A stretch of 64,000 nucleotides of DNA from Deltaproteobacteria bacterium (GTDB taxonomy: Bacteria; Desulfobacterota; Syntrophia; Syntrophales; UBA8958): contig JAPLJZ010000236.1 in the NCBI GenBank assembly GCA_026388335.1, forward strand, positions 9,295 to 73,294, read 5' to 3'. Numbering within the stretch: position 1 is the stretch's first letter; every line of letters begins with the position of its first letter. This document shows, piece after piece, positions 7,199-22,184 of this stretch. Made by a program: the position numbers and the translations under genes. The notes under the pieces are model-generated. The model did no database searches, had not been told where the DNA came from, and worked only from the letters and a program-made list of their open reading frames with translations.

Positions 7199-7216
7199 TT
7201 TTCTACTTGATTTTCC

Positions 7217-7246
7217 TTGACAATTCAAATACAAAGCAGGTGTAAT
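7217..7246 (+). promoter_or_regulatory. Putative sigma70 promoter of the sensor gene
   Basis: TTGACA at 7217-7222, an 18-nt spacer, then TGTAAT at 7241-7246. By eye only. Confidence 0.3.
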
Positions 7247-7397
7247 TAACGGTGACGCACATTTTGCTAAGGTATAACAACTTCACAAAATGTATATTTT
7301 CCCGTGCATACGGAAATCCAGATCATCAGTAACTCATTAAATACAATGGATTACGTTTTTGCCGGAATAACAGAATATGGACACTTAAAAACCTCTT

Positions 7398-9251
7398 ATG
7401 AGTCTATCAAGTATGACCCTGCGGAAAAAGATATTTCTCATCGTTGCCTTGACTTTTTTTGGTCTAACGATTGTATCCCTAATTACCTCTTACCGTATTC
7501 TCCTGGGGGGAATCCAGGAAATCGAAATACGAGAAAGCCGGCAGGACCTGGATCGCGCCATCGCCCTGCTTGACAATGAACTCAGCTCCATTGGCACGAT
7601 GGCACGTGAGTATGCTACATGGAACGACATGTGCACCTTCATGACCTCCCGAACCCCGGCTTTCATTACCTCTAATTTTACCGATTCAACCTTTATCAAT
7701 CTGAAGATCAATTTTATTATCATTACCGATCGCTCCGGTAATATTGTCTATGCATCTGGTTTTGATCTGAAAAAACAAAAGAAAATGCCGATATTCAATG
7801 GTTTCCCCGAACAACGCAAAATAATTCATGATTACATCTTCTCCTCGCCTACATCCAAATCATCATCAGGCATTGAATTCTTACAGGAAGGCCTGACCAT
7901 GCTTGCTGTCCGGCCCATCATGACCAGCGATGGCAAGGGAAATCCACGCGGCCTTTTTATCATCGGCCGCTTCCTCGACACGGGAGAAATTGCTCATCTT
8001 GGCGAGATGCTAAAGCTTAAATTATCACTTTTCCACAAAAACGAAAAGAATCTTCCTCCAGATGTCAGCAACGCATGGACCGCTCTGACCCCAGATCAGA
8101 CCATGTTCATTCAACCCATTAGCGGTCATACCATTGCCGGATATGCTTTGATGAAAGATCTCTTTGGAAAATCATCCCTGGTACTCAGAACGATGGACGA
8201 CAGATCCATTTTCAAGCATGGCAAGGCTATCGCCGTCTATGTGCTTATCTTTGTGCTATTTGCGGCCCTTGTCTTCACGGTGGTCTCGGTCTTGCTGCTG
8301 GAAAAGTTAGTTCTCCGCAGGCTTTTGAAGATCAGCCATGATGTCAGATCCATCGAATCCGACGGAAATCTAACAAAAAGAATCCAACTGGATGGTCGAG
8401 ACGAGCTGGCAAACCTTACCCATGACATCAATAACATGCTTGAAAAACTCGAGCATTCGGAAATTAACATTCGCAATGAAGCGGAAAAATACCGCGCTGT
8501 TATTGAAGATCAAACGGAATTCATCTGTCGTTTTGACCAAGACGGCGCCTTGACCTTTATCAACGATGCTTATTATCGCTTTTTCCATCATAAACGCCGG
8601 GAATTGATTGGCAGACATTTTCTTTCTTTTGTCCCTGACAATGACCGCGGCCATATCGACGAACTTCTCAGTAGTGTAAAGACGGAAAACCCCGTGATAT
8701 CTTATGAAAACCGCGTGATATTGCCCGAAGGCGAGGAATTATGGCAGCATTGGACCTGCCGGGCGATCTATGATGAGCATGGGGAATTCATGGAATATCA
8801 GGCTGTCGGACGGGATATTTCTGATCGCAAACAAGCGGAAAATGAGCTCCTGACCCTCAACAGCAAGCTCGAAGAGGCCAATATCCAATTAGGCGCTGCC
8901 TATACGAACATGAAAAACAACCTTGATAAGCTGAGAAAACATCTTTTCAAGGAAGAATTTGCTTTTCTCGTGGACCGGAAAGGACAGATTTGCGGCATCA
9001 CCGAACGGGTGCTTGAATATATGAAACTCTCCCGCAGTGAGATGATCGGCGCCAACATGAGCGATTATCTGCCGGACAAGGAACGCGAGACCTTCATCGG
9101 GGAGCTTCACGAGGCCTGGATTGGCATTACCAAGCAATCCTATGTTCAGCTCCTGCGGCCAAAAGAGGAATCGGAATCGCAATTCTTCGAAATGAAACTG
9201 GCCAGGCTGACCCTGGAAGGGAAACGGATGCTTCTGGTTACCCTCAGATAA
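7398..9251 (+). CDS. Membrane sensor protein: CHASE4-like periplasmic domain, HAMP, two PAS-like domains, no recognisable output domain
   Basis: 617 aa. TM1 (IFLIVALTFFGLTIVSLI); a ~250-aa periplasmic region beginning ...DLDRAIALLDNELSSIGTMAREYATWNDMCTFM (CHASE4-like); TM2 (VYVLIFVLFAALVFTVVSVLLL); HAMP (RDELANLTHDINNMLEKLE); PAS (YRAVIEDQTEFICRFDQDGALTFINDAY...); a coiled coil; and a second PAS-like segment. No HisKA/HATPase, GGDEF, EAL or MCP signature seen. Confidence 0.7.
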   Translation: MSLSSMTLRKKIFLIVALTFFGLTIVSLITSYRILLGGIQEIEIRESRQDLDRAIALLDNELSSIGTMAREYATWNDMCTFMTSRTPAFITSNFTDSTFINLKINFIIITDRSGNIVYASGFDLKKQKKMPIFNGFPEQRKIIHDYIFSSPTSKSSSGIEFLQEGLTMLAVRPIMTSDGKGNPRGLFIIGRFLDTGEIAHLGEMLKLKLSLFHKNEKNLPPDVSNAWTALTPDQTMFIQPISGHTIAGYALMKDLFGKSSLVLRTMDDRSIFKHGKAIAVYVLIFVLFAALVFTVVSVLLLEKLVLRRLLKISHDVRSIESDGNLTKRIQLDGRDELANLTHDINNMLEKLEHSEINIRNEAEKYRAVIEDQTEFICRFDQDGALTFINDAYYRFFHHKRRELIGRHFLSFVPDNDRGHIDELLSSVKTENPVISYENRVILPEGEELWQHWTCRAIYDEHGEFMEYQAVGRDISDRKQAENELLTLNSKLEEANIQLGAAYTNMKNNLDKLRKHLFKEEFAFLVDRKGQICGITERVLEYMKLSRSEMIGANMSDYLPDKERETFIGELHEAWIGITKQSYVQLLRPKEESESQFFEMKLARLTLEGKRMLLVTLR

Positions 9252-9332: not shown

Positions 9333-9785
9333 ATGACTGTCTTATTTCTCTGCACCGCCAATATCGTCAGGAGTTTCATGGCAGAGAGGATATTGAAGGG
9401 AAGATTGGCAAAGATCAAGAGAAGCGATGTGGCCGTTTGTTCCGCCGGAATGATCGACATGCAGGGCGCTGACGGCGATCCGGCAGCGATAAAAATGCTG
9501 GCGGAACACGGATATGATAGTCTTTCCCATGTTTCCAGATTAATCTCGGAAGGGATGCTGGGGGAAGCAGACTGGATTGTGGTGATGGAAAGCGCTCATC
9601 GTCAACAGCTTATCGGCGACTATCCTCAATATGAGGGAAAGATTCGCCTCCTGAAATCCTTTGCCAGAGATTACGATGGCGTCAACCAGGACATACGTGA
9701 CCCGTACCGGCAGTCGGTTTATAATTATCGACTCTGTTTTTCAGAAATTTACATGGCCATTGACGGAATGATGAAATGTATTTAG
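9333..9785 (+). CDS. Low-molecular-weight protein-tyrosine phosphatase
   Basis: 150 aa. N-terminal CX5R(S) P-loop (LFLCTANIVRSFMAE) and a C-terminal DP motif (DIRDPY). This is the expected partner of the Wzc-type tyrosine kinase at 19266. Confidence 0.8.
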   Translation: MTVLFLCTANIVRSFMAERILKGRLAKIKRSDVAVCSAGMIDMQGADGDPAAIKMLAEHGYDSLSHVSRLISEGMLGEADWIVVMESAHRQQLIGDYPQYEGKIRLLKSFARDYDGVNQDIRDPYRQSVYNYRLCFSEIYMAIDGMMKCI

Positions 9786-10570
9786 ATTATTGGAAAATCA
9801 ACAAGTATCCCTTTGAGAACGTCCCCGATCCGGACTTCATGTACTATTCTCCGGAACACGAAGAAGCCCTTGTCCGCCTGCTGTATGCCGTCAAAAGGAT
9901 GAAGGGCGCCGCGCTCCTGACCGGTGAAATCGGCAGCGGGAAAACAACCTTAAGCAGGGTCTTCATTCAACAGCTTCCCGAGAAGGAATTTGACATCGGT
10001 CTCATCACGAATCCCTCCCTGAACGCCCTGGATTTCATCAAAGAGGTTCATTACCAATTGGGGCTCGATTCCGATTCCAATTCCAAAACCGATCTGCTCG
10101 TTATTCTCAATAACCACTTGCTGGACAACATGAACAATGGAAGGAGCACCCTGTTGATTATTGACGAGGCCCAGCTCATTTTCGGTGAGACGTTTGAGGA
10201 GATCCGTCTCTTGTTGAACTTCCAGATGAACGACCGGTTCCTGATGACTTTCCTCCTCATTGGCCAGCCGGAATTGCGAGATATGATTCGCGAATATAAA
10301 CAGCTTGATCAACGCATCGCCATCAGGTATCACCTCAATCCGCTGACGAAGTCAGAAACGGCCAATTACATCCGTTTCCGCCTGAGCAAGACAGGTTGTG
10401 AGCGTGAGCTATTTACGGAAAAGGCTTATGATGCCATTTATCAATATTCCGGGGGTATACCACGGAAGATAAACAATGTTTGTGACTTATCGCTGTTGAT
10501 CGGCTTCAGCCTGAAATTCCAGGAAATTGATGAGCCACTGATTTTAAAGGTTGTCAGAGATTCCCTATAG
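9776..10570 (+). CDS. ExeA-like AAA ATPase (PEP-CTERM/exosortase-locus secretion ATPase type)
   Basis: 264 aa. N-terminus MYLDYWKINKYPFENVPDPDFMYYSPEHEEAL, Walker A GEIGSGKTT, Walker B LLIIDEAQ. Overlaps the phosphatase gene by 10 nt. Confidence 0.8.
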   Translation: MYLDYWKINKYPFENVPDPDFMYYSPEHEEALVRLLYAVKRMKGAALLTGEIGSGKTTLSRVFIQQLPEKEFDIGLITNPSLNALDFIKEVHYQLGLDSDSNSKTDLLVILNNHLLDNMNNGRSTLLIIDEAQLIFGETFEEIRLLLNFQMNDRFLMTFLLIGQPELRDMIREYKQLDQRIAIRYHLNPLTKSETANYIRFRLSKTGCERELFTEKAYDAIYQYSGGIPRKINNVCDLSLLIGFSLKFQEIDEPLILKVVRDSL

Positions 10571-10616
10571 TCTTTTCAGATTGACAGTCTCTCCCCCGCA
10601 ATCTATAATCCCCAAC

Positions 10617-10904
10617 ATGAACGAACATAATAAAAAGGGCGTGATTGCCAATCCCATGGTAATACTTCGGGAAGAATTCGACGACCGGGCAATCCTGTTC
10701 GATCCGGAAACGGGAAATACTTTCGGCGTCAACCCGATCGGCGTCCTCGTCTGGAAACACCTCGACGGTCGTCATTCCATTGATGATATTGCCGTAATTG
10801 TCTTCGAAAAGGCCGATGCGGTTCCTTCCGATGTGACCACTCACATCGAGAATTTTCTACAGGTCGCAGTCGATCTCGGGCTGGCCGGCTACGGGGTTAA
10901 ATAA
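10617..10904 (+). CDS. PqqD-family protein (RiPP recognition element-like), copy 1
   Basis: The likely start is ATG 10617 (MNEHNKKG...); the ORF is open from 10551. PqqD-type core: ILFDPETGNTFGVNPIGVLVWKHLDGRHSIDDIAVIV. Ends 8 nt before the radical SAM gene. Confidence 0.75.
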   Translation: MNEHNKKGVIANPMVILREEFDDRAILFDPETGNTFGVNPIGVLVWKHLDGRHSIDDIAVIVFEKADAVPSDVTTHIENFLQVAVDLGLAGYGVK

Positions 10905-10911
10905 GGATCTT

Positions 10912-12018
10912 ATGACTACGTCAGTGATGAAAACACCCCGCAATGTTGATATCGAGATTACAAGTTTTTGTAATCTCCGCTGTGCCTACTGCAGTCATTT
11001 TTCCGGCCCGGGAGATGTAAAAGAGGACCTCCCGCTGGAATCCTGGCTTCAGTTTTTCGCCGAATTGGGTCGCTGCAACACTATGAAAATAACCCTTTCC
11101 GGAGGGGAACCCTTCAGCCGCCCGGACCTCCGGGCCATTATTCAGGCTATCGTGGCCAATCGCATGCGTTTCACCATTCTCAGCAACGGCACCCTCATCG
11201 ATAATGAAATGGCCGCTTTCCTGTCCGCAACCGGTCGCTGCGATCTCGTGCAGGTCTCCATCGACGGGGCCATTGATACTACCCACGACGCCTTTCGGGG
11301 GGAAGGTAACTTTATGAAGGCAATTCATGGTATCCATGCCCTGCAGGCCAACCATTTGCCCGTATCGGTCCGCGTTACCATCCACCGGAAAAATGTTCGC
11401 GAACTTGACGCCATTGCCGGATTTCTCCTGGAGGACCTTGGCCTGCCGTCTTTTTCTACCAATTCGGCCTCTCACATGGGATTATGCCGGAAAAACGCCG
11501 CCCAAACGCAACTTACCGTTGACGAGCACTCACTGGCCATGGAAACCCTGCTTGCCCTTACGGCCAGGTATAAAGGACGGATTAATGCATCGGCCGGCCC
11601 ACTGGCGGATGCGCAGTTCTGGCTGGAGATGGAAAATTCCCGGCGGGAAAACCGGGAACGACCAGCGGGTCGCGGATTTCTTACGGGATGCAGCGGTCCC
11701 ATGCAGACCATTGCTGTCCGCGCTGACGGCGTCATTGTCCCCTGCTCACAGTTGTGCCATCTGAGCCTGGGCCGGATCAACCAGGATGATCTTGGCGAGA
11801 TCTGGCGGCACCATCCGGAGCTGCAAAGCCTGAGGAAGCGCTCCCGGTTATCACTTGAGGATTTTCCCTTTTGCCGGGATTGCCCCTATACCTCCTATTG
11901 TACCGGTAACTGTCCGGCAATTGCCTATAGCCTCACCGGCGAAATTGATCATCCCTCTCCCGATGCCTGTCTCCGGCAATTCTTAACACAGGGCGGCCGA
12001 CTTCCGGAGGTAGCGTAA
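10912..12018 (+). CDS. Radical SAM/SPASM-domain peptide-maturase-like enzyme, copy 1
   Basis: 368 aa. CX3CX2C cluster (FCNLRCAYCSH), SAM-binding GGEP (LSGGEPF), and a C-terminal Cys-rich SPASM region (GCSGPMQTIAVRADGVIVPC ... FCRDCPYTSYCTGNCPA). Confidence 0.9.
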   Translation: MTTSVMKTPRNVDIEITSFCNLRCAYCSHFSGPGDVKEDLPLESWLQFFAELGRCNTMKITLSGGEPFSRPDLRAIIQAIVANRMRFTILSNGTLIDNEMAAFLSATGRCDLVQVSIDGAIDTTHDAFRGEGNFMKAIHGIHALQANHLPVSVRVTIHRKNVRELDAIAGFLLEDLGLPSFSTNSASHMGLCRKNAAQTQLTVDEHSLAMETLLALTARYKGRINASAGPLADAQFWLEMENSRRENRERPAGRGFLTGCSGPMQTIAVRADGVIVPCSQLCHLSLGRINQDDLGEIWRHHPELQSLRKRSRLSLEDFPFCRDCPYTSYCTGNCPAIAYSLTGEIDHPSPDACLRQFLTQGGRLPEVA

Positions 12019-12119
12019 ATTTTAGGTTAGGGGTTATAAACATCTTGACCTGCAAATCGCCATAAGGTATCGTTTCAATGTATAGATGTCATGGATTCGT
12101 TATGAAAGGAGGGGCAACT

Positions 12120-12518
12120 ATGGACATCCAGAGAAGGTCTCTTTTCAAGATTGCGGCGGGAGGGGCGCTGCTCGTCACGGGCGGTTCTTTCTTAGCGAAG
12201 GAAAACAGTTTTATGTGGAACCTGTGGCATCAGCTTCGTTATCGCGTCACGATTAATGCGGCGCCGGCGAGAAATCCAGACATTATATCTAAAAGACAAG
12301 GTCAGGAAACGGTTCTTTATTCCCAGTCACAGCAGACGGATCTCCTTAAGCTCAATCCCATGGCCGGGCGCATCTGGGAGATGTGTGACGGCTCACACCG
12401 GGTGGGTGATATGATTCGCAGCATCGGCAATCGTTTTGATGTCGTGACCTCCGAATGCACCCGGGATGTCCTGTTCACCGTTGCAAACCTCCAGCAGCGA
12501 GGATTGCTCCGCATCTAA
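12120..12518 (+). CDS. PqqD-family protein with N-terminal twin-arginine (Tat)-type signal, copy 2
   Basis: ATG 12120 lies 5-6 nt after AAAGGAGGGG (12105-12114). N-terminus MDIQRRSLFKIAAGGALLVTGGSFLAKE (RR-x-L-F-K plus a hydrophobic region). The C-terminal half is PqqD-like: LLKLNPMAGRIWEMCDGSHRVGDMIRSIGNRF. Confidence 0.7.
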   Translation: MDIQRRSLFKIAAGGALLVTGGSFLAKENSFMWNLWHQLRYRVTINAAPARNPDIISKRQGQETVLYSQSQQTDLLKLNPMAGRIWEMCDGSHRVGDMIRSIGNRFDVVTSECTRDVLFTVANLQQRGLLRI

Positions 12519-12529
12519 AGGGAGGATAT

Positions 12530-12913
12530 ATGGAAGGGGACTTTAAATCGAGATTCAAACTTCCCTATGAGCCGCCGCAGATCTTTGACCTCTGGACCTC
12601 AACGGCCCATGCCCAGGATGCGGCGGCCAAGCAGTGTAAAACCGGCTCCTCGGTAAGTAAGCAATGCATGACCGGTGGTTCCCCGGGGCAACAGTGCATG
12701 TCCGGAGGGACGGCATACGGCGGTAAATGCCAAAGCGGCAGCGTAGCTACGGGAGAATGCGACCACGGGAGTTCAGCCCAATCGGGAAAATGCCAGTCAG
12801 GAAGCGTCCCTACGGGACAATGCAGGTCAGGAAGCGCCGCAGCAGGCGGGAAGTGTGACTCAGGCAGCGCCGCTGGAGGTGGTTGCACGTCAGGCAGTGC
12901 AGGGAAAAACTAA
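12530..12913 (+). CDS. Candidate RiPP precursor: 127-aa peptide with 33-aa leader and nine Cys-x-[ST]-G-[SG] repeats
   Basis: ATG 12530 lies 4 nt after GGAGG (12521-12525) and 11 nt after the upstream stop. Cys residues sit at positions 36, 46, 56, 67, 77, 88, 98, 109 and 119. The core is Gly/Ser/Ala-rich with no signal peptide. It is the last gene of the PqqD/rSAM operon. The longer ORF start at 12455 overlaps the upstream gene and lacks an RBS. Confidence 0.65.
   Translation: MEGDFKSRFKLPYEPPQIFDLWTSTAHAQDAAAKQCKTGSSVSKQCMTGGSPGQQCMSGGTAYGGKCQSGSVATGECDHGSSAQSGKCQSGSVPTGQCRSGSAAAGGKCDSGSAAGGGCTSGSAGKN
12629..12910 (+). repeat. In-frame tandem coding repeats (nine 30-33-nt Cys-centred units; last 189 nt = three 63-nt super-repeats)
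   Basis: The periodicity is visible in both the DNA and the protein. For example, aaatgccaaagcggcagcgtagctacggga (12725-) compares with aaatgccagtcaggaagcgtccctacggga (12788-). The 21-aa units are GKCQSGSVATGECDHGSSAQS / GKCQSGSVPTGQCRSGSAAAG / GKCDSGSAAGGGCTSGSAGKN. Confidence 0.8.
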
Positions 12914-12916
12914 TTA

Positions 12917-12940
12917 GTGGGGCATAACCCCGTTTTATTT
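12917..12940 (+). terminator. Weak hairpin + T-rich tract after the precursor gene
   Basis: GGGG(12919-12922)-CATAA-CCCC(12928-12931) is followed by GTTTTATTT. The stem is only 4 GC pairs (6 with wobbles). The T-tract overlaps the stop of the convergent gene at 12935. Confidence 0.3.
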
Positions 12941-13855
12941 CGCCACGACAAGCTCCCAGAAACCGGGATCCTTCCGGAAAAACAGATCATAGGCCGCAGT
13001 CATTTCACAAACGTCACGGCAAAGATAAAAGGCCTGCCTCTTCAAGGGTTCCCCCATCACCTCAAAACAATGAAGGTGCTCCTTTAATAATTCCGTGAAG
13101 GCGTTTCGCTGCTCCCGAGACTGAATGGAGGTCATTGCCGACTGATGGAGAAAGAGCAATTTGTCCAGTTTTTCCTGCTGCAGGTACAACCGTTTGGGGG
13201 ACGGTTGGTCGCCCCCCACCTGCCTGAACGGGGTGGCATGGATATGACAGGCATCTCCGGCGTCTTCGATTACTGTTGCATCATCGGATAAGACAATATC
13301 GCCGGAAGACAAGGCGGCGACAGTTGATTTACCTGTCCCCGAGGTTCCAAGAAACAGGTATCCTCCCCTTCCCTTTCTCTTTTTGATGCCTGCGCCATGA
13401 ACCATGAGCCTGCCTCTGTTTACCATCACCAGGCAGGTAAAGACAAAAAGCAGCTTCAGCAGGGTCCCCACGAAATGGTTCGCCTCATCTGAGCAGAAAA
13501 TGTAGATCAATCCCCGGTTGGTACGATCATCAAAGATTAGGCAACCGTTCAAAAATCCAATGGCTTCAGAATAATTCTTCAGGGAAGAAAAGGTGATTTT
13601 GTCAATCCGGGCAAAGATCGCTTCGTTTATATTGGAATCTTCGCGGCGGATGAGATGGGGTTCACTGTCAAAGCGTTGCAGGTAAGTTAGTTCATGATCG
13701 AAATGGACAAGACAGACGGCGTCAGGGGTTTTTTTTTTGCTGATCAGAAAACCCGACAACAGGCCCGGTAGTTCGTCGAAGAGATATTCCGCCGCCGCTC
13801 CGTGGGAAATAAAGTCAAAGTTGACCCCGGCAATCGAAAACCACGCTTCCTTCAT
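12935..13855 (-). CDS. HPr-kinase-like P-loop protein (putative peptide Ser kinase)
   Basis: 306 aa. ...LMVHGAGIKKRKGRGGYLFLGTSGTGKSTVAAL...IVLSDDATVI matches the HPr kinase/phosphorylase C-terminal catalytic core (H-x-x-x-V, GxSGxGKS, LxxDD). The start overlaps the HD-GYP stop (ATGA). Confidence 0.65.
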   Translation of the reverse strand: MKEAWFSIAGVNFDFISHGAAAEYLFDELPGLLSGFLISKKKTPDAVCLVHFDHELTYLQRFDSEPHLIRREDSNINEAIFARIDKITFSSLKNYSEAIGFLNGCLIFDDRTNRGLIYIFCSDEANHFVGTLLKLLFVFTCLVMVNRGRLMVHGAGIKKRKGRGGYLFLGTSGTGKSTVAALSSGDIVLSDDATVIEDAGDACHIHATPFRQVGGDQPSPKRLYLQQEKLDKLLFLHQSAMTSIQSREQRNAFTELLKEHLHCFEVMGEPLKRQAFYLCRDVCEMTAAYDLFFRKDPGFWELVVAK

Positions 13856-15093
13856 GAAGCGGGCAGGTCCTCGACGGAGACACTGTCTTCAATATTCAAC
13901 ACCGGATGACTCCGCAGGTCGACCATTCGGGGCGGATCCAATTTTATCCCCTTTTCGTCAAAGATCAGATTGACCACCGGCTTCATCGGATTAGTCTTGT
14001 TCGTCGCGACAACCCGGCCGATATTACGGTTATTCAGCCGGACATAACTGCCGATAGGATACATGGAGATCTCATCTAAAAACATCTTGGTGATCCGGGG
14101 TTCAAATAGATTTGCCCTGGAACCAATCAGTTCCTTGATCGAGTCGGACTGCAATAGGGGCTTCTTATGGGGGCGGTGATGGGTCATGGCCTCATAGGAA
14201 TCACAAATGCCGATAATCTGGGCATAGTCGCATATTTCGTCTCCCTTCAGCCCCCGGGGATAGCCCTGCCCATTTGCCCGCTCCTGGTGTTCATAGACGG
14301 CCCTGATCATCTTCGGGTATCTCGCCGCAAAAGGCGCCATTATCTCAACCGCGAATTCCGGATGACTCTTGATAAGATCCATTTCACTATCTGACGGTCT
14401 CCCCGCCTTGTTCAAGATATTATCCGGGATCCTGAACATTCCGATATCATGAAGCAGGGCCGCCAGTCCGAATTCGATGAGTTTCGATTCTGAGTATCCC
14501 ATCCGTTGGGCAACCTTCAATCCATAAACCAGGGTATTGATAGGAGAAGAAAGATAATAATCGTCTTCCTGTTCATAATCCACGGTCAACTGGTAGATTT
14601 GCGATGTCATATCGTGGGAGGAATGGAGGACATTATTTATATAGATCAGCGCCGGTTCAAGCTGAAAGGACTCCCCTTTTCTGACCTGGTTACGGACGTG
14701 ACCCATATATTGTTTCGCCGCCACATAAATCATTCTTATTCTGTCATCTTCACCCGGCTCTTCCGTAGCTTCCGCAATTGGTTGATCATCCTGCCTCTCT
14801 GAAGGCGTTTGCGTCGCTGTCGCCATTGGCAATTCAGGGGCGGCCGTCTCTATCGCCAGCGATGCTTGCGTGGTTTCGATAACATTCGTCTCCTCGATCT
14901 CGATATCAATGGGGATCTCTTGCTGATTTCCAGATTTCAGTTTAAGAATGTCAATTTCACTCAACCGTAAAGACAGGCGTGCTTCTGCCAGAGCTGCCTC
15001 GTCAGTCTCCGTCTGTTCTGCCGATTCGTCCTGCGGTTCAACATTCGTGAGACTCTTTTTTTTACCCATAACAAGATCGTAAGCACGTGCCAT
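13852..15093 (-). CDS. HD-GYP domain protein (c-di-GMP phosphodiesterase type) with acidic low-complexity N-terminus
   Basis: 413 aa. LLHDIGMF (HD) and EHQERANGQGYPRGL (HD-GYP signature). The N-terminal ~130 aa is rich in E/T/A/D. Confidence 0.85.
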   Translation of the reverse strand: MARAYDLVMGKKKSLTNVEPQDESAEQTETDEAALAEARLSLRLSEIDILKLKSGNQQEIPIDIEIEETNVIETTQASLAIETAAPELPMATATQTPSERQDDQPIAEATEEPGEDDRIRMIYVAAKQYMGHVRNQVRKGESFQLEPALIYINNVLHSSHDMTSQIYQLTVDYEQEDDYYLSSPINTLVYGLKVAQRMGYSESKLIEFGLAALLHDIGMFRIPDNILNKAGRPSDSEMDLIKSHPEFAVEIMAPFAARYPKMIRAVYEHQERANGQGYPRGLKGDEICDYAQIIGICDSYEAMTHHRPHKKPLLQSDSIKELIGSRANLFEPRITKMFLDEISMYPIGSYVRLNNRNIGRVVATNKTNPMKPVVNLIFDEKGIKLDPPRMVDLRSHPVLNIEDSVSVEDLPAS

Positions 15094-15113
15094 GATTCAA
15101 TTCACCCCAAATA

Positions 15114-16193
15114 TTAATTATAGATGCGCGAGGCTGGAAACAGGTTTTTCTCGTAAGCCTCGTCACACATAAAAAAAGAGCTTCTCAGATCACCGGAAGC
15201 GGCATAGGCACAGGCCCGGCAGGAACCGAGGCAACGAAATTTAAATATGCACCGTCCGCAGATCCCGCTGAGTTGCGAAGGCGTTTCTTTTCTTAGCTTT
15301 TGCAGCAGCGGATGATGACGCCAGATTTCCGTTAGATCATCCTTCGCGATGTTTCCCATATTAAGGTCCGTTTCCGTCTGCCCGATCCCGCATAAAGATA
15401 CCGTACCATCGGCAAGAATTCCTAAAATATTGAGGATATGGCATTCGTACAGAGGATTGCCGGTGACGGCATGCAGGGATTTCAACCCGATGGGCATACA
15501 GAAGTAAATCTCCGTTTTATATTTACTGCCGAGTTCCGCTTCGATCCAGCGATCAATTCTGATCAGTTCTTCAATATCCACGTTTTCCCGGCGCTGAAAG
15601 ACCTTTTCCCCACGGCCCGTGGGCATGACGGGATTGATCTTGAAGGAGGGAACCTCAAGATCGTCGCAGAGGGCCGCCAGAGCTTCAATCTCCGGAATGT
15701 TTTCCTCATAGAGGCTCATAATGACCTGGGTGTTTATCTTCTCAGCCCGCAGGTAATGCAGGGCGGCAACGGATTTCTCATGACAACCCTTTATTCCCCG
15801 GAGCTTGTCATGCTGCGCCGCCTGCGCACCGTCCAGACTGACAGATACCTGGCGGACCTCACATTCTTTGATGACCCTTGCCATATCATTGTCAATCATG
15901 GTCCCATTCGATTCGATATCGATGCAGAGACCTTCTCCGTGGAGATATCTCATCAGTTCGACAATATCCTTGCGGAGAAACGGTTCACCTCCGGTAAGTT
16001 TGACTGTCCCCAAGCCCAACTCTTTCGCCGCAGCAATGGTTCTCGTAAGGACGGACAGTTCCATCACCTGCTCATCTCCATCCTCCGGAGCAGGGGGGGA
16101 CACCCAGCAGTGCCTGCACCTGAGATTGCAACGCTCGGAAAGGTACAAATACAGGCTCGTCAGGGGAAATTCATCAGGAACCATGGCTCTCAC
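15114..16193 (-). CDS. Radical SAM/SPASM-domain peptide-maturase-like enzyme, copy 2
   Basis: 359 aa from GTG 16193 (alternative ATG 16184). CX3CX2C (RCNLRCRHC), LTGGEPF, and SPASM Cys clusters (ECHILNILGILADGTVSLC ... ICGRCIFKFRCLGSCRACA). Shares strings with copy 1 (EIWRHHPLLQKLRK versus EIWRHHPELQSLRK). Confidence 0.9.
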   Translation of the reverse strand: MRAMVPDEFPLTSLYLYLSERCNLRCRHCWVSPPAPEDGDEQVMELSVLTRTIAAAKELGLGTVKLTGGEPFLRKDIVELMRYLHGEGLCIDIESNGTMIDNDMARVIKECEVRQVSVSLDGAQAAQHDKLRGIKGCHEKSVAALHYLRAEKINTQVIMSLYEENIPEIEALAALCDDLEVPSFKINPVMPTGRGEKVFQRRENVDIEELIRIDRWIEAELGSKYKTEIYFCMPIGLKSLHAVTGNPLYECHILNILGILADGTVSLCGIGQTETDLNMGNIAKDDLTEIWRHHPLLQKLRKETPSQLSGICGRCIFKFRCLGSCRACAYAASGDLRSSFFMCDEAYEKNLFPASRIYN

Positions 16194-16485
16194 ATTTTGT
16201 CAAAAACTGCATTGCCGCCAGGTTTTCAAAAAAAAGTTTCGTATCTGCTGCTATTTTCTCAACGGCCATTTCGGGATAGAATTCCATCAAAAGAGTGATG
16301 ATATCGCCCACTGTTTTCCGGCCGTCGCACAGTTCATAGATATTGACGCCGTTGGCATTCAGGTACTTCAGATTGCCGGTATGGGGGTCAAAAAGGAAGG
16401 CCCCCTCTTCCTCTTTTCTGAAGACCATCTCCTGATTCGGTTTCAGGCAATCTTCCCTGGTGACAATTTTCGTACCATCAGGCAT
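16174..16485 (-). CDS. PqqD-family protein, copy 3
   Basis: The preferred start is ATG 16485 (MPDGTKIV...), preceded by GAGAGGTG; the ORF is open to 16524/16527. Core: FLFDPHTGNLKYLNANGVNIYELCDGRKTVGDIITLL. The 3' end overlaps the downstream rSAM start. Confidence 0.75.
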   Translation of the reverse strand: MPDGTKIVTREDCLKPNQEMVFRKEEEGAFLFDPHTGNLKYLNANGVNIYELCDGRKTVGDIITLLMEFYPEMAVEKIAADTKLFFENLAAMQFLTKCESHGS

Positions 16486-16596
16486 AATACTACACCTCTC
16501 AGCTCTAACTACTTCTTTTTTCATCAAGAATCAATAATGAATTTTAAAATATTTAGTTCCTTTTTTTCCCCGCCCCTGTTATCGTATCCTTCAATG
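16486..16596. promoter_or_regulatory. AT-rich probable divergent promoter region
   Basis: This region is visibly AT-rich (tcaagaatcaataatgaattttaaaatatttagttcctttttttcc). It lies between the best-supported start of the minus-strand PqqD gene and the second candidate start of the plus-strand nucleotidyltransferase-like gene. No specific boxes assigned. Confidence 0.3.
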
Positions 16597-17775
16597 CATG
16601 CAACCATCGATCATGCCCTCTTTTCGCTGATCAACCATCAGCCGACGCCATGTCTCCCGGAAGTTCTGGCTTCCCCGGAATTATTTCCCTACCTTGAGAT
16701 GAACGGCGTCGCCGGAGTGCTGTTTTACCACCTCCAAAGAGCGGGTCTCCAACAGCTCGCCCCTCCGGACTGTTATGAAGCCCTTCATGACCGTTTCCAT
16801 TTCCAGATCAGAAGAAATATGGCGTGTGCGGCCGCGGCAAAGATAGTTTTTCGCCTGTTGCACACGGCAGGCATCCCTTTCCTGGTCTTGAAGGGCATCG
16901 CCCTTGCCGAACATGTTTATCCCCACTTTGCCATGCGCACCACCTCGGACCTGGATATTCTGATCCGCAAAGACGACCTGTTGCGCGCCGATCTGGCCCT
17001 GACGCAAGCCGGTTATCAATCCTGGGACAGCACCCCCCAACAGGCGCTGCTCAATCCCCCGGGTTATCTTGCCAGCCTCGAATACCACAAACCGGGGATA
17101 GCCTTCGCCTACATCCATCTCCACTGGCATCTTGTCAATACCTCAACCCCCGCCACTGCCTTCATTAATCAAGTGGATATGGAGCGAATATGGGAGAAAT
17201 CCGTCGTTGCGAAAGTGGCTGCTACGGAAGTCCGTCTCCTCTGTCCGGAGCATCTCATCATCTATCTTTGTGAGCATGCCTTGCGGGTCGGCCATTCCTT
17301 TGACCGCCTCATCCTCGTCTGCGATATTCTCTATGCCGTCAAAACTTATAAGGCCCACCTTGACTGGAATAACGTGGCCACGGAGGCGAAAGCCTTGGGC
17401 CTGCTGAATTTTGCCTATCTTGGTCTGAAGATTGTTCAGTTCTATGGGGGGCAGGAATTCTTGATTAATGACGTATTAAAGAAACTTGCCCCCCCTTCCC
17501 TCTCCCGGACGGAGCGTCTCTTTCTTTCCCTTCAGGAAAACCATTACCGTATGCGCGGGAGCAGCTATCTCGTCTATCTGGCCCTGAGCAAGGGGCCAGT
17601 AAATAAGATGAGCCTGATCCTGCGCACCATTTTTCCACCCCGCCCCATTCTCGCCCAGCGGGGGCGATGTAAATTGCATACACAGACAAATACTTTGTAT
17701 TTTCATAGAATTCGTGAAATAACGTCCCATCTTTACAAAATGTTGAAGCTTTGTTATCGGACAATTTATCCATAG
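16537..17775 (+). CDS. NTP_transf_5-like (uncharacterised nucleotidyltransferase family) protein
   Basis: Start at ATG 16537 or 16597. The 656-aa ORF from 15805 is antisense to two good genes upstream of this point. Family recognised from ...NGVAGVLFYHLQRAGL...IPFLVLKGIALAEHVYPHFAMRTTSDLDILIRKDDLLRADLALTQAGYQ (from memory; needs an HMM check). Confidence 0.6.
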   Translation: MNFKIFSSFFSPPLLSYPSMHATIDHALFSLINHQPTPCLPEVLASPELFPYLEMNGVAGVLFYHLQRAGLQQLAPPDCYEALHDRFHFQIRRNMACAAAAKIVFRLLHTAGIPFLVLKGIALAEHVYPHFAMRTTSDLDILIRKDDLLRADLALTQAGYQSWDSTPQQALLNPPGYLASLEYHKPGIAFAYIHLHWHLVNTSTPATAFINQVDMERIWEKSVVAKVAATEVRLLCPEHLIIYLCEHALRVGHSFDRLILVCDILYAVKTYKAHLDWNNVATEAKALGLLNFAYLGLKIVQFYGGQEFLINDVLKKLAPPSLSRTERLFLSLQENHYRMRGSSYLVYLALSKGPVNKMSLILRTIFPPRPILAQRGRCKLHTQTNTLYFHRIREITSHLYKMLKLCYRTIYP

Positions 17776-17911
17776 GGAGGTTTCTGATAGCGCAATTTTC
17801 TAACCGGACAATGCCGTGTTTACTATTGATTTTTGATATTTTTTATGTCAAAGTGCGCCCGGAATTGATTGAGCGGATATTTTGAAAACAAGGCAGGGAG
17901 GGGAAGGAAAG

Positions 17912-19150
17912 ATGACCAAAAGTAGTAAAAAAATCTCCTTGATCATTTTGCTATGCCTGATGACGGGCTGTCTTGCCGCCTGCGGATCCGTCGGCGTAGT
18001 AAAGGGTATCCCTGTCAAAACGTATAAGGTCCCGTCGGAGGATCTGGCGTTACTTGAAAAGCAGTCAAAAAAGAATAATGAAGAAATCCTGCAATTGACC
18101 CAGACCCGGCAGAACGCAGTCTTCAAGGAAACAAATGGTGTGCCGGAGTATATCATCGGTCCGGGGGATGTCCTCACTTTGACGTATTGGATGCCCTATT
18201 CCTCCTCTTTATTCACCACCGGACAGCAGACACAGGGCTCCGCCGAAGGGTTTATGCAGACAACCTCTACGGTGACAGTCCGTCCGGACGGTAAAATCAC
18301 CTATAGTTTCGGAGACGATATTCCCGTGGCCGGCCATACGGCCAATGAAGTTCGTGAAATTCTTTTTAACAGGGTTAAGGATTACATCAGAAAACCAAGA
18401 CTCGAGGTTCTCGTCAAGGAATATAAGAGCAAATCGGCCCTTTTATTCGGACGGATCAATAGTCTACAGAGTACACTCGGCATGACCGGGCCCGGTAAAT
18501 ATCCCCTGAAAGAAAAAACGACGATCCTCGATCTCATCATCACGGCGGGAGGACCGGTCACGGGAATTCCACAGCGCAGCCAGCTCAGGACGGACGCCAA
18601 TTATGGCGGCAATGGGGATTTGCGGAAGGTGGATCTCGTCAGAAAAGGGAAGAAGTACACCCTGAATCTCTACAGCGCCCTCTTTGGAGGGGACATGAGC
18701 AATAATGTCATCCTTGATAACGGCGATATTATTACCGTTCCGGATGAGCCCACGTTTGCACGGAGGGTCTATGTCTTCGGTCAGGTGTACAGTCCCGGCG
18801 TCTTCAGCCTGACAGACGTCAATGATTTGTTGATGGCCATCTCCTATACGGGCGGCTACACAGCCCTTGCCGTTCAATCGGACATTAAGATCGTTAGAGA
18901 ATTTGCGGAGAGAAGGGGCAAGCCCCTTGTTCTCTCCGTAAATCTGGATGATATCCTGAAACGGGGTGATATGTCGCAGAACATCGCTCTTCAGGATGGG
19001 GACCTGGTGTACGTGCCGAGAATGTTGATAGGCGACATCAATGAATTTATCGCTAACATCAACCCGCTCATGACTTTCTTTACATCAACGGTACCACCGG
19101 CAACGGTCATGCAAAACTATATGAAAGATACAAGCAGACTTAAATTTTAA
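17912..19150 (+). CDS. Outer-membrane polysaccharide export lipoprotein (Wza/Poly_export + SLBB)
   Basis: ATG 17912 follows GGAGGGGAAGG. Lipobox LLCLMTGCLAAC. Poly_export motif YIIGPGDVLTLTYW. SLBB-like repeats (LDNGDIITVP, LQDGDLVYVP). Confidence 0.85.
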   Translation: MTKSSKKISLIILLCLMTGCLAACGSVGVVKGIPVKTYKVPSEDLALLEKQSKKNNEEILQLTQTRQNAVFKETNGVPEYIIGPGDVLTLTYWMPYSSSLFTTGQQTQGSAEGFMQTTSTVTVRPDGKITYSFGDDIPVAGHTANEVREILFNRVKDYIRKPRLEVLVKEYKSKSALLFGRINSLQSTLGMTGPGKYPLKEKTTILDLIITAGGPVTGIPQRSQLRTDANYGGNGDLRKVDLVRKGKKYTLNLYSALFGGDMSNNVILDNGDIITVPDEPTFARRVYVFGQVYSPGVFSLTDVNDLLMAISYTGGYTALAVQSDIKIVREFAERRGKPLVLSVNLDDILKRGDMSQNIALQDGDLVYVPRMLIGDINEFIANINPLMTFFTSTVPPATVMQNYMKDTSRLKF

Positions 19151-19265: not shown

Positions 19266-22184
19266 ATGCTGAAATATGACCTGAACCTCCGGGAATACTG
19301 GCGCATCATCAAGCGCCGCAAACTAATTATTCTCTTCACCGTCATCGTCATGTCCATCTTCAGTTTCATTTCCGCCATCCTGGGTAAGCCCGTACCGATA
19401 TACAAAACAACCTCCACGATCAAAATTGAAAAGAGCGTCTCATATGTGGGCATGAATGCCGTTCAGTCCCTGAGCGGGGCATCCAACGCCATGGAAACCC
19501 AGACCTACGTGATCAAGAGTTACTACATCCTGGAGTTGACGGCCAAGAAGATGGGCCTGATACCCGCAGATCTCTCTCCGGACGAAGTAAGGCAAAACAA
19601 CAAATACATAAATATTATCAATGATTTACAGGAGAGGGTCCAAACGGAACAACGGGGAAACAGCGACCTTGTCGATGTCACCATTACCGCCAACGAACCA
19701 AAATTTGCCACTAATTTTTGCAATACCCTGACGGATGTCTACAGAACCCAGCATTCCCTCGATTTAAACCGGAGAACTATTGAAGGAAAAAAATTCATTG
19801 AAAGCCAGTTTGGCATCTCCAGAGAAAAACTGACCAAATCCGACGAGACTATCAAACGCTTCCGGGAACAGAATAAATGGTCCTCACTGGAGGGAGAATC
19901 ATTGTACTTGGCGAATCAGATCAACCGCCTCCAGACCATCCGTGATCAGGATCAGATCATCATACAGAAGATCAACTCCGCAGCCGCCGCCCTGAATGCG
20001 GCTGAATATTCGCCGTTGACCTCAAAGGTAAATTTTTACTTCGAAGAGGCATCCCCGCCGTACAGGGCACTCAACGACCGGCTGGTGAACCTGATGCTGG
20101 AAAGGGACTCCCTTCTCCAAACATATACGGATAATTTTCCCCAGATTGCGGCTATTAAGACTCTGGTCCACGATACCATCGAAAGCATGAAGGCCCAGTT
20201 AACGTCGCAACGGCGGAATCTCGCGTCCAACATCAGAATATATAACCAGCAGATAGCGGAATCAACCGCCAAATTCAAAAAGCTCCCCGAAAAGGCTCTC
20301 GAACTGACCCGTCTGGATCGTGACGCTGCCATCGCGAAAGAACTATATTCCCTGCTGGAAAGAAGATACCAGGAAACCTTGATCGCGGAGGCCGAAAAGC
20401 TTGACGAAGTTAAGGTCGTGAAGCCCGCCATTGAACCGGCGTCGCCGATCAACCCCCCCAAAACAGGCACCAATACCATTCTTGGAACGGTTTTAGGGCT
20501 GATCCTGGGGGTCGTCTTTGCCTTTCTGATTGAAACCTTTGATACGTCCATCGCCGCCATTGAGGAAGTTGAGGAATTCCTGGGTGTCCAGGTTCTGGGC
20601 GTTATACCCTTTGTTAGCGTCGAAGAAATCAAGACCTTGCTTGGCGACGATCCCGATGTTTCCCTTAACGAAGATAAAGTCCGGCGCTATGCCCGGTTAG
20701 CCGCGCACTTCGTGCCGGCGTCCACGCTTTCCGAGAGTTACAAGGCCCTGCGTACGAGCCTGAATTTTGTCTGCACGGAAAACGATCTTAAAACGATTCT
20801 CTTTACGAGTTCTTCCCCCGGCGAGGGCAAAACATCCATCGTGACCAACCTCGCCATCACCATGGCCCAGATAGGCCAGAAGGTACTCCTCATTGACGGC
20901 GATCTGAGAAGACCCGTTATAGCAAAATTGTTCGGAATTGAACAGATTCCGGGACTTACGGATGTAATCCTGGGCAACTACGAATGGCATAATGTCGTTA
21001 AATCCGTTACAGATCTTATGATGGGCAGGTTGTCCATTGAAGAAATCATGAAGACCCCCGGCCTGGATAACCTCCATATTATTACCAGCGGCACATACTC
21101 GCCCAGTCCCTCCGAAATAATCAATTCCAGGGCCATAGGCGAATTTATGGATAGCATCCGCAAGGAATACGATATTATTCTAATCGACGCTCCGCCGGTG
21201 CTGGCCGCTACCGACGCCGCTCTTTGGAGTTCCCGTGTAGATGGCACGGCCCTTGTCTATCAGGTTGGTAAAATCGCCCGCGGCGCCCTGAGGCGCTCCA
21301 AAATGTCCTTGGAAAATCTGAAAGCCAACGTGATCGGCGTTGTCCTGAACGGCCTGAAAGCGGAGATCAGTCCAGACTTCGGACAGCAGGATTATTACTA
21401 TTATTACTACGGCAGGGAAAAAGCTCCGGTTTCCCTCAGTAAAAAGATCAAGGATAAGATTTTGACTGGTCCACAGAGTATCTGGTATGCTTTAGGCAGT
21501 ATTTTTAGAAAGAAACCGGTCGCGATGCCTGAAGAGGATACACCCACCGGCAACGGAAAGGGAACCGGGAACGGCGAAGATAAGAGAACAGTCATCGCAG
21601 CCAAAATTGATAGCATTAAAACCGAGGAATCAGCCGCGGAGACAAAGAGAGAAAAGAAGCAGGAGAAGGCAAAACCGTGGCTAAAAATTTTCATGATTTT
21701 CCTTTTGATTATTCTTCTGGCCCTCGGCCTCCTCTACCAGGCCGGTTATTTAAAAATACGAAATACCATCAAGTCATCGTGGCAACAGCCCGTCGTCAGT
21801 GAAACCATACCGGTGGCGCCAAAGGAAACGGAAATCGTCAAGACTACGGTGGTTCCACCAACAGCTCCCCTGCCAATAGTTCCCGAAAAAGAAACAGCGG
21901 CCGCAGTGATCCCAGCCAAGGAGGCGGAGGCCGAAAGACCATTTTCAATCCAGATTAAAGCCGTCCCTGCCTCCGAAGAAGCCCGCAGGGATGTGGAAAC
22001 CTTAAAGGCCAAAGGGGAAGACGCATTTTCCATGCGCGTCGCCATCAAAGGCCGTGAGGCATGGGACAGGATCTTTATCGGCCGGTTTGCAACGAAAGAA
22101 GAAGCCGTAAAATATGTGGGGCAAAACAAAATCAAAACCAGATATCCCGGCAGCATCGTACGGAATACGTCAACGAACGATTAA
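19266..22184 (+). CDS. Polysaccharide co-polymerase / BY-family tyrosine autokinase (Wzc-like) with additional C-terminal TM and SPOR domain
   Basis: 972 aa. Wzz-type N-terminus (TM1 LIILFTVIVMSIFSFISAIL, a long coiled periplasmic region, TM2 ILGTVLGLILGVVFAFLI). Kinase Walker A SSSPGEGKTS, A' LLIDGDLRRP, B IILIDAPP. Tyr cluster DYYYYYYG (21393-21410). A Lys/Glu-rich linker, then TM3 (about 21678-21752), a Pro-rich linker, and a SPOR-like fold (FSIQIKAV...RIFIGRFATKEEAVKYV, about 21936-22160). Confidence 0.85.
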   Translation: MLKYDLNLREYWRIIKRRKLIILFTVIVMSIFSFISAILGKPVPIYKTTSTIKIEKSVSYVGMNAVQSLSGASNAMETQTYVIKSYYILELTAKKMGLIPADLSPDEVRQNNKYINIINDLQERVQTEQRGNSDLVDVTITANEPKFATNFCNTLTDVYRTQHSLDLNRRTIEGKKFIESQFGISREKLTKSDETIKRFREQNKWSSLEGESLYLANQINRLQTIRDQDQIIIQKINSAAAALNAAEYSPLTSKVNFYFEEASPPYRALNDRLVNLMLERDSLLQTYTDNFPQIAAIKTLVHDTIESMKAQLTSQRRNLASNIRIYNQQIAESTAKFKKLPEKALELTRLDRDAAIAKELYSLLERRYQETLIAEAEKLDEVKVVKPAIEPASPINPPKTGTNTILGTVLGLILGVVFAFLIETFDTSIAAIEEVEEFLGVQVLGVIPFVSVEEIKTLLGDDPDVSLNEDKVRRYARLAAHFVPASTLSESYKALRTSLNFVCTENDLKTILFTSSSPGEGKTSIVTNLAITMAQIGQKVLLIDGDLRRPVIAKLFGIEQIPGLTDVILGNYEWHNVVKSVTDLMMGRLSIEEIMKTPGLDNLHIITSGTYSPSPSEIINSRAIGEFMDSIRKEYDIILIDAPPVLAATDAALWSSRVDGTALVYQVGKIARGALRRSKMSLENLKANVIGVVLNGLKAEISPDFGQQDYYYYYYGREKAPVSLSKKIKDKILTGPQSIWYALGSIFRKKPVAMPEEDTPTGNGKGTGNGEDKRTVIAAKIDSIKTEESAAETKREKKQEKAKPWLKIFMIFLLIILLALGLLYQAGYLKIRNTIKSSWQQPVVSETIPVAPKETEIVKTTVVPPTAPLPIVPEKETAAAVIPAKEAEAERPFSIQIKAVPASEEARRDVETLKAKGEDAFSMRVAIKGREAWDRIFIGRFATKEEAVKYVGQNKIKTRYPGSIVRNTSTND

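Follow-up and report, generated by a model that had tools for sequence, protein, structure and literature searches.

The question raised by this locus is why a group of genes resembling those for peptide modification is found in the midst of genes for exopolysaccharide (EPS) export. The group consists of eleven genes at 9333–17775 of a 64,000-nucleotide stretch of a Syntrophales genome (contig JAPLJZ010000236.1), which was analyzed as a whole and is called the window; exosortase and TPR genes lie on one side of the group, and genes for Wza- and Wzc-like export proteins on the other. In an earlier examination of the letters alone (hereafter, the sequence-only reading), the eleven genes were regarded as a maturation cassette for a peptide made on ribosomes and modified after translation (RiPP), embedded in and co-transcribed with the EPS locus, and were tentatively likened to the SynChlorMet (Scm) family. 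We consider it probable, at roughly two chances in three, that the region is a variant SynChlorMet cassette for RiPP maturation, designated "type B" here, and that its substrate is the 127-residue product of the open reading frame (ORF) at 12530–12913.

The Scm family is represented in NCBIfam/TIGRFAM by five models, namely TIGR04248 (ScmD), TIGR04249 (ScmC), TIGR04250 (ScmE), TIGR04251 (ScmF), and TIGR04252 (ScmA), with the cutoffs of 100, 125, 400, 400, and 35 bits, respectively. The first radical SAM protein of the cassette matched ScmE with 571.8 bits over the full length of the model (1–358 of 358), and the PqqD-type protein encoded just upstream matched ScmD with 106 bits, the other two PqqD proteins of the cassette reaching 32–36 bits. 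These two proteins are thus bona fide members of the Scm family, and the suggested link to SynChlorMet proved correct. The second radical SAM protein found its best match, again at full length, in ScmF (333.5 bits), and the P-loop protein and the Cys-repeat peptide gave 24.9 bits with ScmC and 20.3 bits with ScmA; these three are homologous to, but diverged from, ScmF, ScmC, and ScmA, and are written here as ScmF', ScmC', and ScmA'. The accompanying statement that no precursor is assigned to Scm is wrong, as the ScmA family exists. With RiPP recognition element (RRE) proteins, two radical SAM/SPASM enzymes, and a Cys-repeat precursor all present, the general call of a RiPP-type cassette holds as well. 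ScmE homologues are numerous: one search returned 2,948 of them at E ≤ 1e-30, and they span Thermodesulfobacteriota, Aminicenantes, Nitrospirota, and methanogens. This kind of system is, in other words, already catalogued through the curated models and experimentally uncharacterized; our literature searches on SynChlorMet, on the Scm proteins, and on TIGR04248–04252 found no relevant paper, nor did those on SPASM with PqqD and exopolysaccharide or on twin-arginine translocation (Tat) with RRE and radical SAM. Several features presented below are not described in the searchable literature: the type-B architecture, the RRE protein with a Tat signal, the motifs as analyzed here, the promoter inside the cassette region, and the association with EPS, HD-GYP, and LMW-PTP phosphatase genes, which recurs among loci.

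The precursor ScmA' is composed of a leader, KLPYEPPQIFDL, which carries the motif KLPYEPPxIFDL, followed by an A-H-A site and then by nine decapeptide repeats of C-x-[ST]-G-[SG]-x-A. A ribosome-binding site, GGGAGG, lies 5 nt 5' of its ATG. Our comparison set consisted of ScmE-containing loci (numbered L001 onward), 81 in the scan for peptide patterns and 82 in the neighborhood counts, and many of the contigs were incomplete. Relative to the orthologues in L001, L080, and L003, the peptide gave dN/dS values of 0.19–0.33, with all nine Cys residues and their spacing invariant; the 127-residue ORF is under purifying selection and is a conserved coding gene. Peptides with such a leader and Cys repeats were found in at least 46 of the 81 loci, often in two to six copies; the conservation of the ORF among homologous loci, the lack of which the sequence-only reading had named as a refutation, is thereby supported. 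Homologous peptides adjacent to ScmE occur, furthermore, in both bacteria and archaea. Family-wide motif statistics gave a repeat period of 10–11 residues and the consensus C-x-[ST]-G-[SG]-x-A-x-x-x, in which Gly at +3 is present at 100% of the 98 Cys positions in type B and at 78% of the 378 positions in type A (the canonical form of the cassette), while Ala or Pro occupies +6 in 84% of the type-B cases. The leader motif in common, [K/R]-x-x-Y-E-x-P-x-[LI]-x-x-L, is, as judged from its pattern, of the kind bound by RRE domains. The number of Cys residues ranges from 3 to 19 between loci and the repeat sequence is widely variable; L018, L025, and L037 have hypervariable precursors in multiple copies. 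A second copy of the precursor was searched for in the window, and none was found.

Gene callers mostly skip the precursor ORF or call an Ala/Pro/Val-rich antisense ORF, and the cassettes therefore look as if they had no precursor in public annotation. Examples of precursors skipped or miscalled are those in L079/L085 (identical to 12519–12934 of the window), L082 (13037–13405), and L084 (12055–12444). In the window, the corresponding antisense ORF of 107 residues (12565–12888, minus strand) was rejected as a real gene, since it is the plus-strand ORF that has the ribosome-binding site and the conservation; the antisense ORF is unsupported as a gene and is a by-product of the GC-rich repeats. 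The idea that the peptide is a PEP-CTERM substrate was also rejected, as no sorting tail is present. We also noticed a 175-residue Cys-rich protein (CPxC...CC, CxxCxxCC-like) encoded 3' of the precursor in L083 (12412–12939), L084 (12422–12949), and L005 (12293–12820), with a homologue in L007; the window lacks it.

Both radical SAM proteins possess the CxxxCxxC motif and the complete SPASM signature (C-x12-G-x4-C, C-x2-C-x5-C-x3-C, C), and the SPASM cysteines of ScmE are invariant across the alignment of its homologues. Among solved structures, those nearest to them belong to the RiPP maturases SkfB, PqqE, and CteB, and no anaerobic sulfatase maturase was matched at E ≤ 0.001; the concern raised in the sequence-only reading that the two enzymes might fall into the latter family hence found no support. 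The models of PapB, StsB, AlbA, and SkfB gave 72–122 bits with these proteins against cutoffs of 300–850, and the next NCBIfam matches outside Scm were a mixture of peptide and heme/cofactor radical SAM enzymes, all far under cutoff. The reading of the two proteins as an anaerobic sulfatase maturase or a cofactor enzyme was rejected on these grounds, namely the missing structural match and the low scores of the cofactor models. ScmF' is 37–41% identical to canonical ScmF and has many relatives at 44–58% identity; it forms a distinct clade in eight loci (the window and seven others), all of which have no match to canonical ScmF. By analogy with SkfB, CteB, and PapB-type enzymes, thioether rings would be the most likely product of the two radical SAM proteins.

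ScmC' is placed by precomputed Pfam in PF27840 (ScmC), and hhalign of ten window-type proteins against 29 canonical ScmC proteins gave a probability of 99.3% with E of 4e-20 over the C-terminal 156 residues, which include the Walker A loop. When the ScmC/ScmC' profile was compared with the PDB, ATP-dependent phosphoenolpyruvate carboxykinase (PEPCK) was matched at E of 5e-6 and several HPr kinases at 1e-4 to 7e-3; the match of ScmC' to HprK-related models was weak (21 bits). An AlphaFold2 model of ScmC' (pLDDT 87.6, pTM 0.89) hit PEPCK structures in Foldseek at E of 1e-9 over both domains, the whole-chain fold being closest to PEPCK. As far as the model goes, ScmC' is predicted to have the fold of the PEPCK/HprK P-loop phosphotransferases and is a putative peptide kinase, and the earlier HprK-like call is sustained at the level of superfamily and fold. 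The NTP_transf_5 call is upheld at the Pfam level (158 bits); this protein keeps the S-D-L-D motif, and its homologues were found in 36 loci including the window. The precedent that the sequence-only reading had invoked for the kinase is documented: lasso precursors receive a phosphate on their C-terminal Ser from a homologue of HPr kinase, and in the case of pseudomycoidin, a nucleotidyltransferase adds a hexose onto the Ser-O-phosphate (reviewed in PMC8498205).

In terms of architecture, the cassettes can be categorized into two types. Type A, the canonical one, has ScmD-ScmE-ScmF on one strand in most loci and often adds ScmA, ScmC, an MsbA-like ABC exporter, and NTP_transf_5; ScmC was found in 44 loci and a full-length ABC exporter in 20 loci of the genome-scan set, and L072 represents a fully annotated example. 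Type B was found in 13 other distinct loci (L001, L080, L003, L002, L075, L019, L005, L013, L014, L016, L082, L083, and L084) and is marked by a divergent ScmC', a twin-arginine PqqD protein, the leader [K/R]-[LIVF]-P-Y-[E/D]-[P/A]-P-x-[IL]-x-D-L, and, in most of them, ScmF'. All 14 type-B loci, with the window counted, have the twin-arginine signal on the PqqD protein (e.g., QRRSLFK-, ARRNFLA-, DRRRFIS-, SRRSFM-, and GRRGFVL-), with a hydrophobic segment rich in Gly coming next and an end resembling A-x-A; the Tat signal is predicted from this motif pattern alone. Within the genome-scan set, the loci with the Tat-signal PqqD protein and the 20 loci with the full-length ABC exporter do not overlap at all. 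Also, an [A/V]-[H/Y]-A site is situated 4–5 residues past the D-L of the leader in 12 of 12 type-B peptides, and type-A peptides mostly have A-x-G just ahead of the first Cys. A gene for an S26 signal-peptidase-like protein, a candidate leader peptidase for the A-x-G and A-x-A sites, accompanies some canonical cassettes (L072, 17956–18930; homologues in L034, L037, L046, and L068).

ScmE of L072 is 78% identical to that of the window, above the ScmE proteins of several type-B loci, and the canonical ScmF-ScmA-ScmC-ABC module of L072 is located between LMW-PTP-ATPase-ScmD-ScmE (LMW-PTP, low-molecular-weight protein-tyrosine phosphatase) and the NTP_transf_5, HD-GYP, Wza, and Wzc genes; with a canonical module held within window-type flanks, the downstream module was apparently swapped in place. 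In L084 (1–14500), type-A and type-B cassettes adjoin on one contig and are followed by the genes for an Rce1-like protease and a HEAT-repeat protein and by Wza/Wzc.

We then come to the connection with EPS. Ten of the 82 comparison loci (~10%) encode both Wza and Wzc no farther than 10 kb from ScmE; L072 also has both, its Wzc being cut by the end of the locus. The arrangement is that of the window in L001, L080, L003, L072, L026, L029, and L082. In L014, a metagenome-assembled genome (MAG) of Desulfatibia, ATPase-Wza-Wzc lies 5' of ScmE; L031 has Wza/Wzc divergent from ScmE, with HD-GYP and ATPase genes downstream; Wza-Wzc is 5' of a canonical cassette in L010; and L084 has Wza-Wzc after its type-A and type-B cassettes. 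At least five distinct arrangements are thus recognized. LMW-PTP, the AAA ATPase, and HD-GYP accompany the cassette despite altered gene order in L002, L007, L031, L075, and L082; among the 82 loci, HD-GYP homologues are found near ScmE in 11, the ATPase adjoins ScmE in 11, and LMW-PTP is present in 13. In the window, the HD-GYP gene lies inside the maturase operon, where its translation is coupled to that of the ScmC' gene. Because the EPS association recurs in differing arrangements, it is unlikely to be one inherited accident, and its recurrence suggests an envelope role for the cassette product, in concert with functions in exopolysaccharide or biofilm. If this link is functional, peptide natural-product chemistry would be tied to the assembly of the biofilm matrix in syntrophic anaerobes.

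The juxtaposition with EPS genes is accordingly not unique to this genome, and the partners that recur are LMW-PTP, the AAA ATPase, HD-GYP, and Wza/Wzc. The exosortase itself adjoins the cassette only in the closest relatives of the window. The models of the XrtA system are also under cutoff in the window (ATPase, 248 against 324.5 bits; export protein, 118 against 180; PrsT, 130 against 312), and one PEP-CTERM-like tail is visible in the region (830–1495). As a separate observation, an LMW-PTP homologue (52–55% identical) heads an operon of LMW-PTP, Tat-signal PqqD, and precursor(s) in L002 (2879–4372), L019 (123–1070), and L075 (8023–9500), where no Wza/Wzc is in reach; LMW-PTP may be part of the peptide system instead of acting only as Wzb.

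The proposed co-transcription of the cassette with the EPS genes is open to doubt. The cassette has its own predicted promoter, a perfect sigma-70 match (12/12) that lies past the stop of the ATPase gene (10570) and ends 7 nt before the ATG of scmD (10617); by our estimate, ~0.003 perfect matches are expected by chance in the 9.2 kb concerned. L001, L080, and L072 keep the two hexamers and the spacing of 7 nt to the ATG, even with the diverged spacer of L072. As no Shine–Dalgarno sequence was found ahead of the scmD ATG and the promoter is only 7 nt away, the scmD mRNA is probably leaderless or near-leaderless. The conserved promoter makes obligatory co-transcription with the EPS genes doubtful, though no terminator-like site was found between the upstream genes and the cassette, and read-through from the LMW-PTP/ATPase genes is therefore possible.

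Comparison with known systems places the window close to, but apart from, canonical SynChlorMet. They share two radical SAM/SPASM enzymes, PqqD, a P-loop protein of the ScmC type, a Cys-repeat precursor with a leader of the (K)YExPxLxxL type, and NTP_transf_5 as a frequent companion. The window differs in that its cassette is split into two convergent operons, has three PqqD proteins (one with the Tat signal) and no ABC exporter, encodes a long precursor with nine repeats and an A-x-A site, contains HD-GYP inside an operon, and lies in an EPS-export locus. With sactipeptides (SkfB, AlbA) and ranthipeptides (PapB/freyrasin, CteB/SCIFF, NxxcB), the window has in common an RRE, a radical SAM/SPASM enzyme, and a Cys-bearing precursor, and the iterated short Cys motifs of its peptide resemble the repeated motifs of the PapA and NxxC precursors. 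Unlike those systems, however, it has two maturases and a kinase-like and a nucleotidyltransferase-like enzyme and is known here from genes alone; to our knowledge, moreover, C-x-[ST]-G-[SG]-x-A is not the motif of any characterized class. Lasso-peptide loci (paeninodin, pseudomycoidin) likewise have an HPr-kinase-superfamily protein, a nucleotidyltransferase-type protein, and PqqD/RRE beside a ribosomal peptide. A lasso-peptide cluster was nevertheless rejected, as neither the Asn-synthase-like cyclase nor the B-type leader protease was matched among the eleven cassette proteins; the Asn synthase at 30209–32089 is of the AsnB type with a GATase domain and belongs to a sugar operon. Another relevant case is QhpC/QhpD, in which a radical SAM/SPASM enzyme makes multiple Cys thioethers in the cytoplasm on the gamma-subunit of quinohemoprotein amine dehydrogenase and the cross-linked polypeptide then reaches the periplasm. 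QhpC is an enzyme subunit with a quinone cofactor, and has no decapeptide repeats, kinase, nucleotidyltransferase, or Tat-signal RRE.

From the gene content, the following course of events can be proposed. The cytoplasmic PqqD/RRE proteins would bind the leader at KLPYEPPxIFDL and hand the core over to ScmE and ScmF', and these two enzymes would modify one C-x-[ST]-G-[SG]-x-A repeat after another; the most likely products would be small Cys-derived thioether rings, with the invariant Gly at +3 as the favored acceptor. ScmC' and the NTP_transf_5 protein might then phosphorylate Ser/Thr, and possibly attach a phospho-linked sugar or nucleotide there, after the precedent of lasso peptides. Type B has no ABC exporter in the cassette; in its place, the RRE protein with the Tat signal could hold the cross-linked peptide by the leader and take it through the membrane. 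Signal peptidase I would then remove the leader at the conserved A-[H/Y]-A site. Type-B peptides would in that case be the first Tat "hitchhiker" RiPPs, cleaved at A-x-A by signal peptidase I: the cargo would be delivered to the periplasm already cross-linked and phospho(glyco)sylated, and the mature peptide, which would be Ser/Gly-rich and multi-ring, might serve as a structural partner of exopolysaccharide, either as a primer or in the matrix, while its production would be tuned through HD-GYP by cyclic di-GMP (c-di-GMP) and through LMW-PTP and Wzc by tyrosine phosphorylation. This hitchhiker scheme with its role in exopolysaccharide is speculative and, in our estimation, has a low probability; if the proposal of export by the Tat-signal RRE holds, it would represent a new export logic for RiPPs.

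Several points weigh against the type-B SynChlorMet reading and what we build upon it. ScmF', ScmC', and ScmA' all score under the curated cutoffs, and no chemistry for any Scm protein was found in the searched literature. The nearest NCBIfam neighbors outside Scm include the heme/cofactor radical SAM enzymes NirJ and AhbD, so that homology alone cannot fix the reaction, and the C-terminus of the peptide is not Ser, unlike the substrates of lasso kinases. Regarding export, an NCBIfam scan of nine Tat-PqqD orthologues at E ≤ 10 matched no Tat-signal model; the hypergeometric p of ~0.02 for the exclusivity of Tat signal and ABC exporter ignores phylogeny and comes from a set with many incomplete contigs; and L084, in a separate look-up, proved to encode an ABC transporter in a type-A cassette that adjoins the type-B one. 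Furthermore, the ScmE loci lack EPS genes within 10 kb in ~85–90% of cases, and L083 has a complete type-B cassette among housekeeping genes (uvrB/uvrC, ribosomal); the EPS link is hence facultative and concerns a minority of cassettes. These last two observations would also be expected if the product were a secreted bacteriocin-like or signaling RiPP unrelated to exopolysaccharide, with the EPS position being an insertion accident inherited by few lineages. The strong predicted promoter that the cassette has for itself, together with the multi-copy hypervariable precursors typical of antimicrobial RiPPs (L018, L025, and L037), would fit such a product. Nonetheless, we consider it unlikely, given that Wza/Wzc adjacency occurs in at least five arrangements, that LMW-PTP, the AAA ATPase, and HD-GYP travel with the cassette across gene orders, and that HD-GYP is translationally coupled to the ScmC' gene.

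It might alternatively be supposed that the peptide gives rise to a small redox cofactor or a metal chelator, by analogy with PQQ or mycofactocin, and that its repeats are excised as cross-linked fragments for the enzymes of the locus. Indeed, PQQ and mycofactocin are likewise synthesized around a core of PqqD and radical SAM/SPASM, the PqqE, mycofactocin, NirJ, and AhbD models are among the weaker matches, and the repeats would allow several products per precursor. All the cofactor models are, however, far under their cutoffs, and the window cassette contains no protease, oxidase, or other cofactor-tailoring gene; the Cys count and the sequence vary widely between loci, unlike those of cofactor precursors, and exporters or Tat-signal proteins accompany the cassettes, which together make a cofactor origin quite improbable. 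Even less credible is the notion that the radical SAM proteins are similar to anaerobic sulfatase maturases or are other protein/cofactor enzymes serving the EPS enzymes, and that the Cys-repeat ORF is spurious. The habit of gene callers to skip this ORF or to call the antisense strand, as well as the 107-residue antisense ORF itself, would agree with that notion, but it is already contradicted by the evidence: ScmE passes an equivalog model of a peptide cassette, no sulfatase maturase structure was matched at E ≤ 0.001, the plus-strand ORF combines a ribosome-binding site and a conserved motif in its leader with invariant Cys residues and a dN/dS well under 1, and homologous peptides are found beside ScmE across bacteria and archaea. 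A type-B SynChlorMet cassette thus remains the reading we prefer. The Scm family is large and has curated models; this locus gives an experimental handle on the family, with a defined precursor of nine near-identical sites, two maturases, a pair of kinase-like and nucleotidyltransferase-like enzymes, and a testable hypothesis on export.

The features of the cassette and its surroundings are listed in Table 1. All of the eleven genes were reproduced in the ORF list at, or a few codons off, the coordinates given earlier, and the profile searches agree with the family calls (LMWPc, AAA ATPase, three PqqD, two Radical_SAM with SPASM, HD-GYP, and NTP_transf_5). Both gene overlaps that had been pointed out are also present, namely the 10 nt shared by the LMW-PTP and ATPase genes (9776/9785), which is kept in L072, L080, and L082, and the ATGA at 13852–13855 between the HD-GYP and ScmC' genes. 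In the public annotation of the identical contig, the starts are placed at 16524 for PqqD3, at 16184 for the second radical SAM protein, and at 16594 for the NTP_transf_5 protein. The NTP_transf_5 gene diverges from the minus-strand operon.

Table 1. Features of the type-B cassette and its flanks, in window coordinates
Feature	Position	Strand	Evidence
LMW protein-tyrosine phosphatase	9333–9785	+	Pfam LMWPc 98.9 bits; CX5R motif, DPY
AAA ATPase, similar to the ExeA-like ATPase of XrtA/PEP-CTERM systems	9776–10570	+	AAA_22 80 bits; TIGR03015 248 bits, cutoff 324.5
Predicted sigma-70 promoter, TTGACA-17-TATAAT	10581–10609	+	12/12 consensus match
ScmD, PqqD-type RiPP recognition element	10617–10904	+	TIGR04248 106 bits; PqqD 44.5 bits
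ScmE, radical SAM/SPASM	10912–12018	+	TIGR04250 571.8 bits; CNLRCAYC, full 7-Cys SPASM motif
PqqD/RRE protein with predicted Tat-type signal (QRRSLFK + h-region + FLA)	12120–12518	+	PqqD 49 bits, residues 65–130
ScmA-like precursor peptide (ScmA'), 127 residues	12530–12913	+	TIGR04252 20.3 bits; ribosome-binding site, dN/dS, Cys repeats
Terminator-like hairpin	12916–12934	between convergent operons	7 bp stem, then T-rich tail
ScmC-like P-loop protein (ScmC'), putative peptide kinase	12935–13855	-	GTSGTGKST; PEPCK/HPr-kinase fold (predicted)
HD-GYP protein, putative c-di-GMP phosphodiesterase	13852–15093	-	HD_5 91 bits, HD 54 bits; HDIG, HQERANGQGYP
Second radical SAM/SPASM, divergent ScmF paralogue (ScmF')	15114–16193	-	TIGR04251 333.5 bits
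Third PqqD-domain protein (PqqD3), heads minus-strand operon	16174–16524	-	PqqD 40.7 bits
NTP_transf_5 nucleotidyltransferase-like protein	16537–17775	+	PF14907 158 bits; SDLDILI motif
PEP-CTERM protein (context)	830–1495	+	VPEP + TM + basic tail
Exosortase-EpsI fusion (context)	2430–4004	-	TIGR02602 132.5 bits, cutoff 105.6
Wza-like exporter (context)	17882–19150	+	downstream flank
Wzc-like tyrosine autokinase/co-polymerase (context)	19266–22184	+	downstream flank

The upstream flank comprises the exosortase-EpsI fusion, a TPR protein, and the PEP-CTERM-tailed protein. The sequence-only reading had counted eleven non-glycan genes between the exosortase/TPR genes and Wza/Wzc; all of these are there, but the count is incomplete, as three more non-glycan genes, those for an MBL-fold protein, PpsR, and a CHASE4-HAMP-PAS sensor, fill 5685–9251 between the TPR gene and the cassette. 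Past Wza/Wzc, a long plus-strand operon for sugar modification follows, with UDP-GlcNAc 2-epimerase, DegT aminotransferase, AsnB, methyltransferase, and formyltransferase genes. An Rfam scan of the whole window matched no RNA family, the c-di-GMP riboswitch included. Among the comparison loci, the nearest to the window is L001, from a Syntrophus sp. MAG.

Two observations on the flanks may be added. The ORFs at 22520–23242 and 23145–23921 of the window overlap in different frames, the second matching Wzy_C (O-antigen ligase/polymerase), and Wzy_C is one gene of 468 residues in L082; the split in the window may stem from a frameshift or from faulty assembly. The CHASE4-HAMP-PAS protein (7398–9251) has no recognizable output domain and is encoded directly 5' of LMW-PTP also in L001, L003, L072, and L080; it may be a sensor partner of the HD-GYP or Wzc module.

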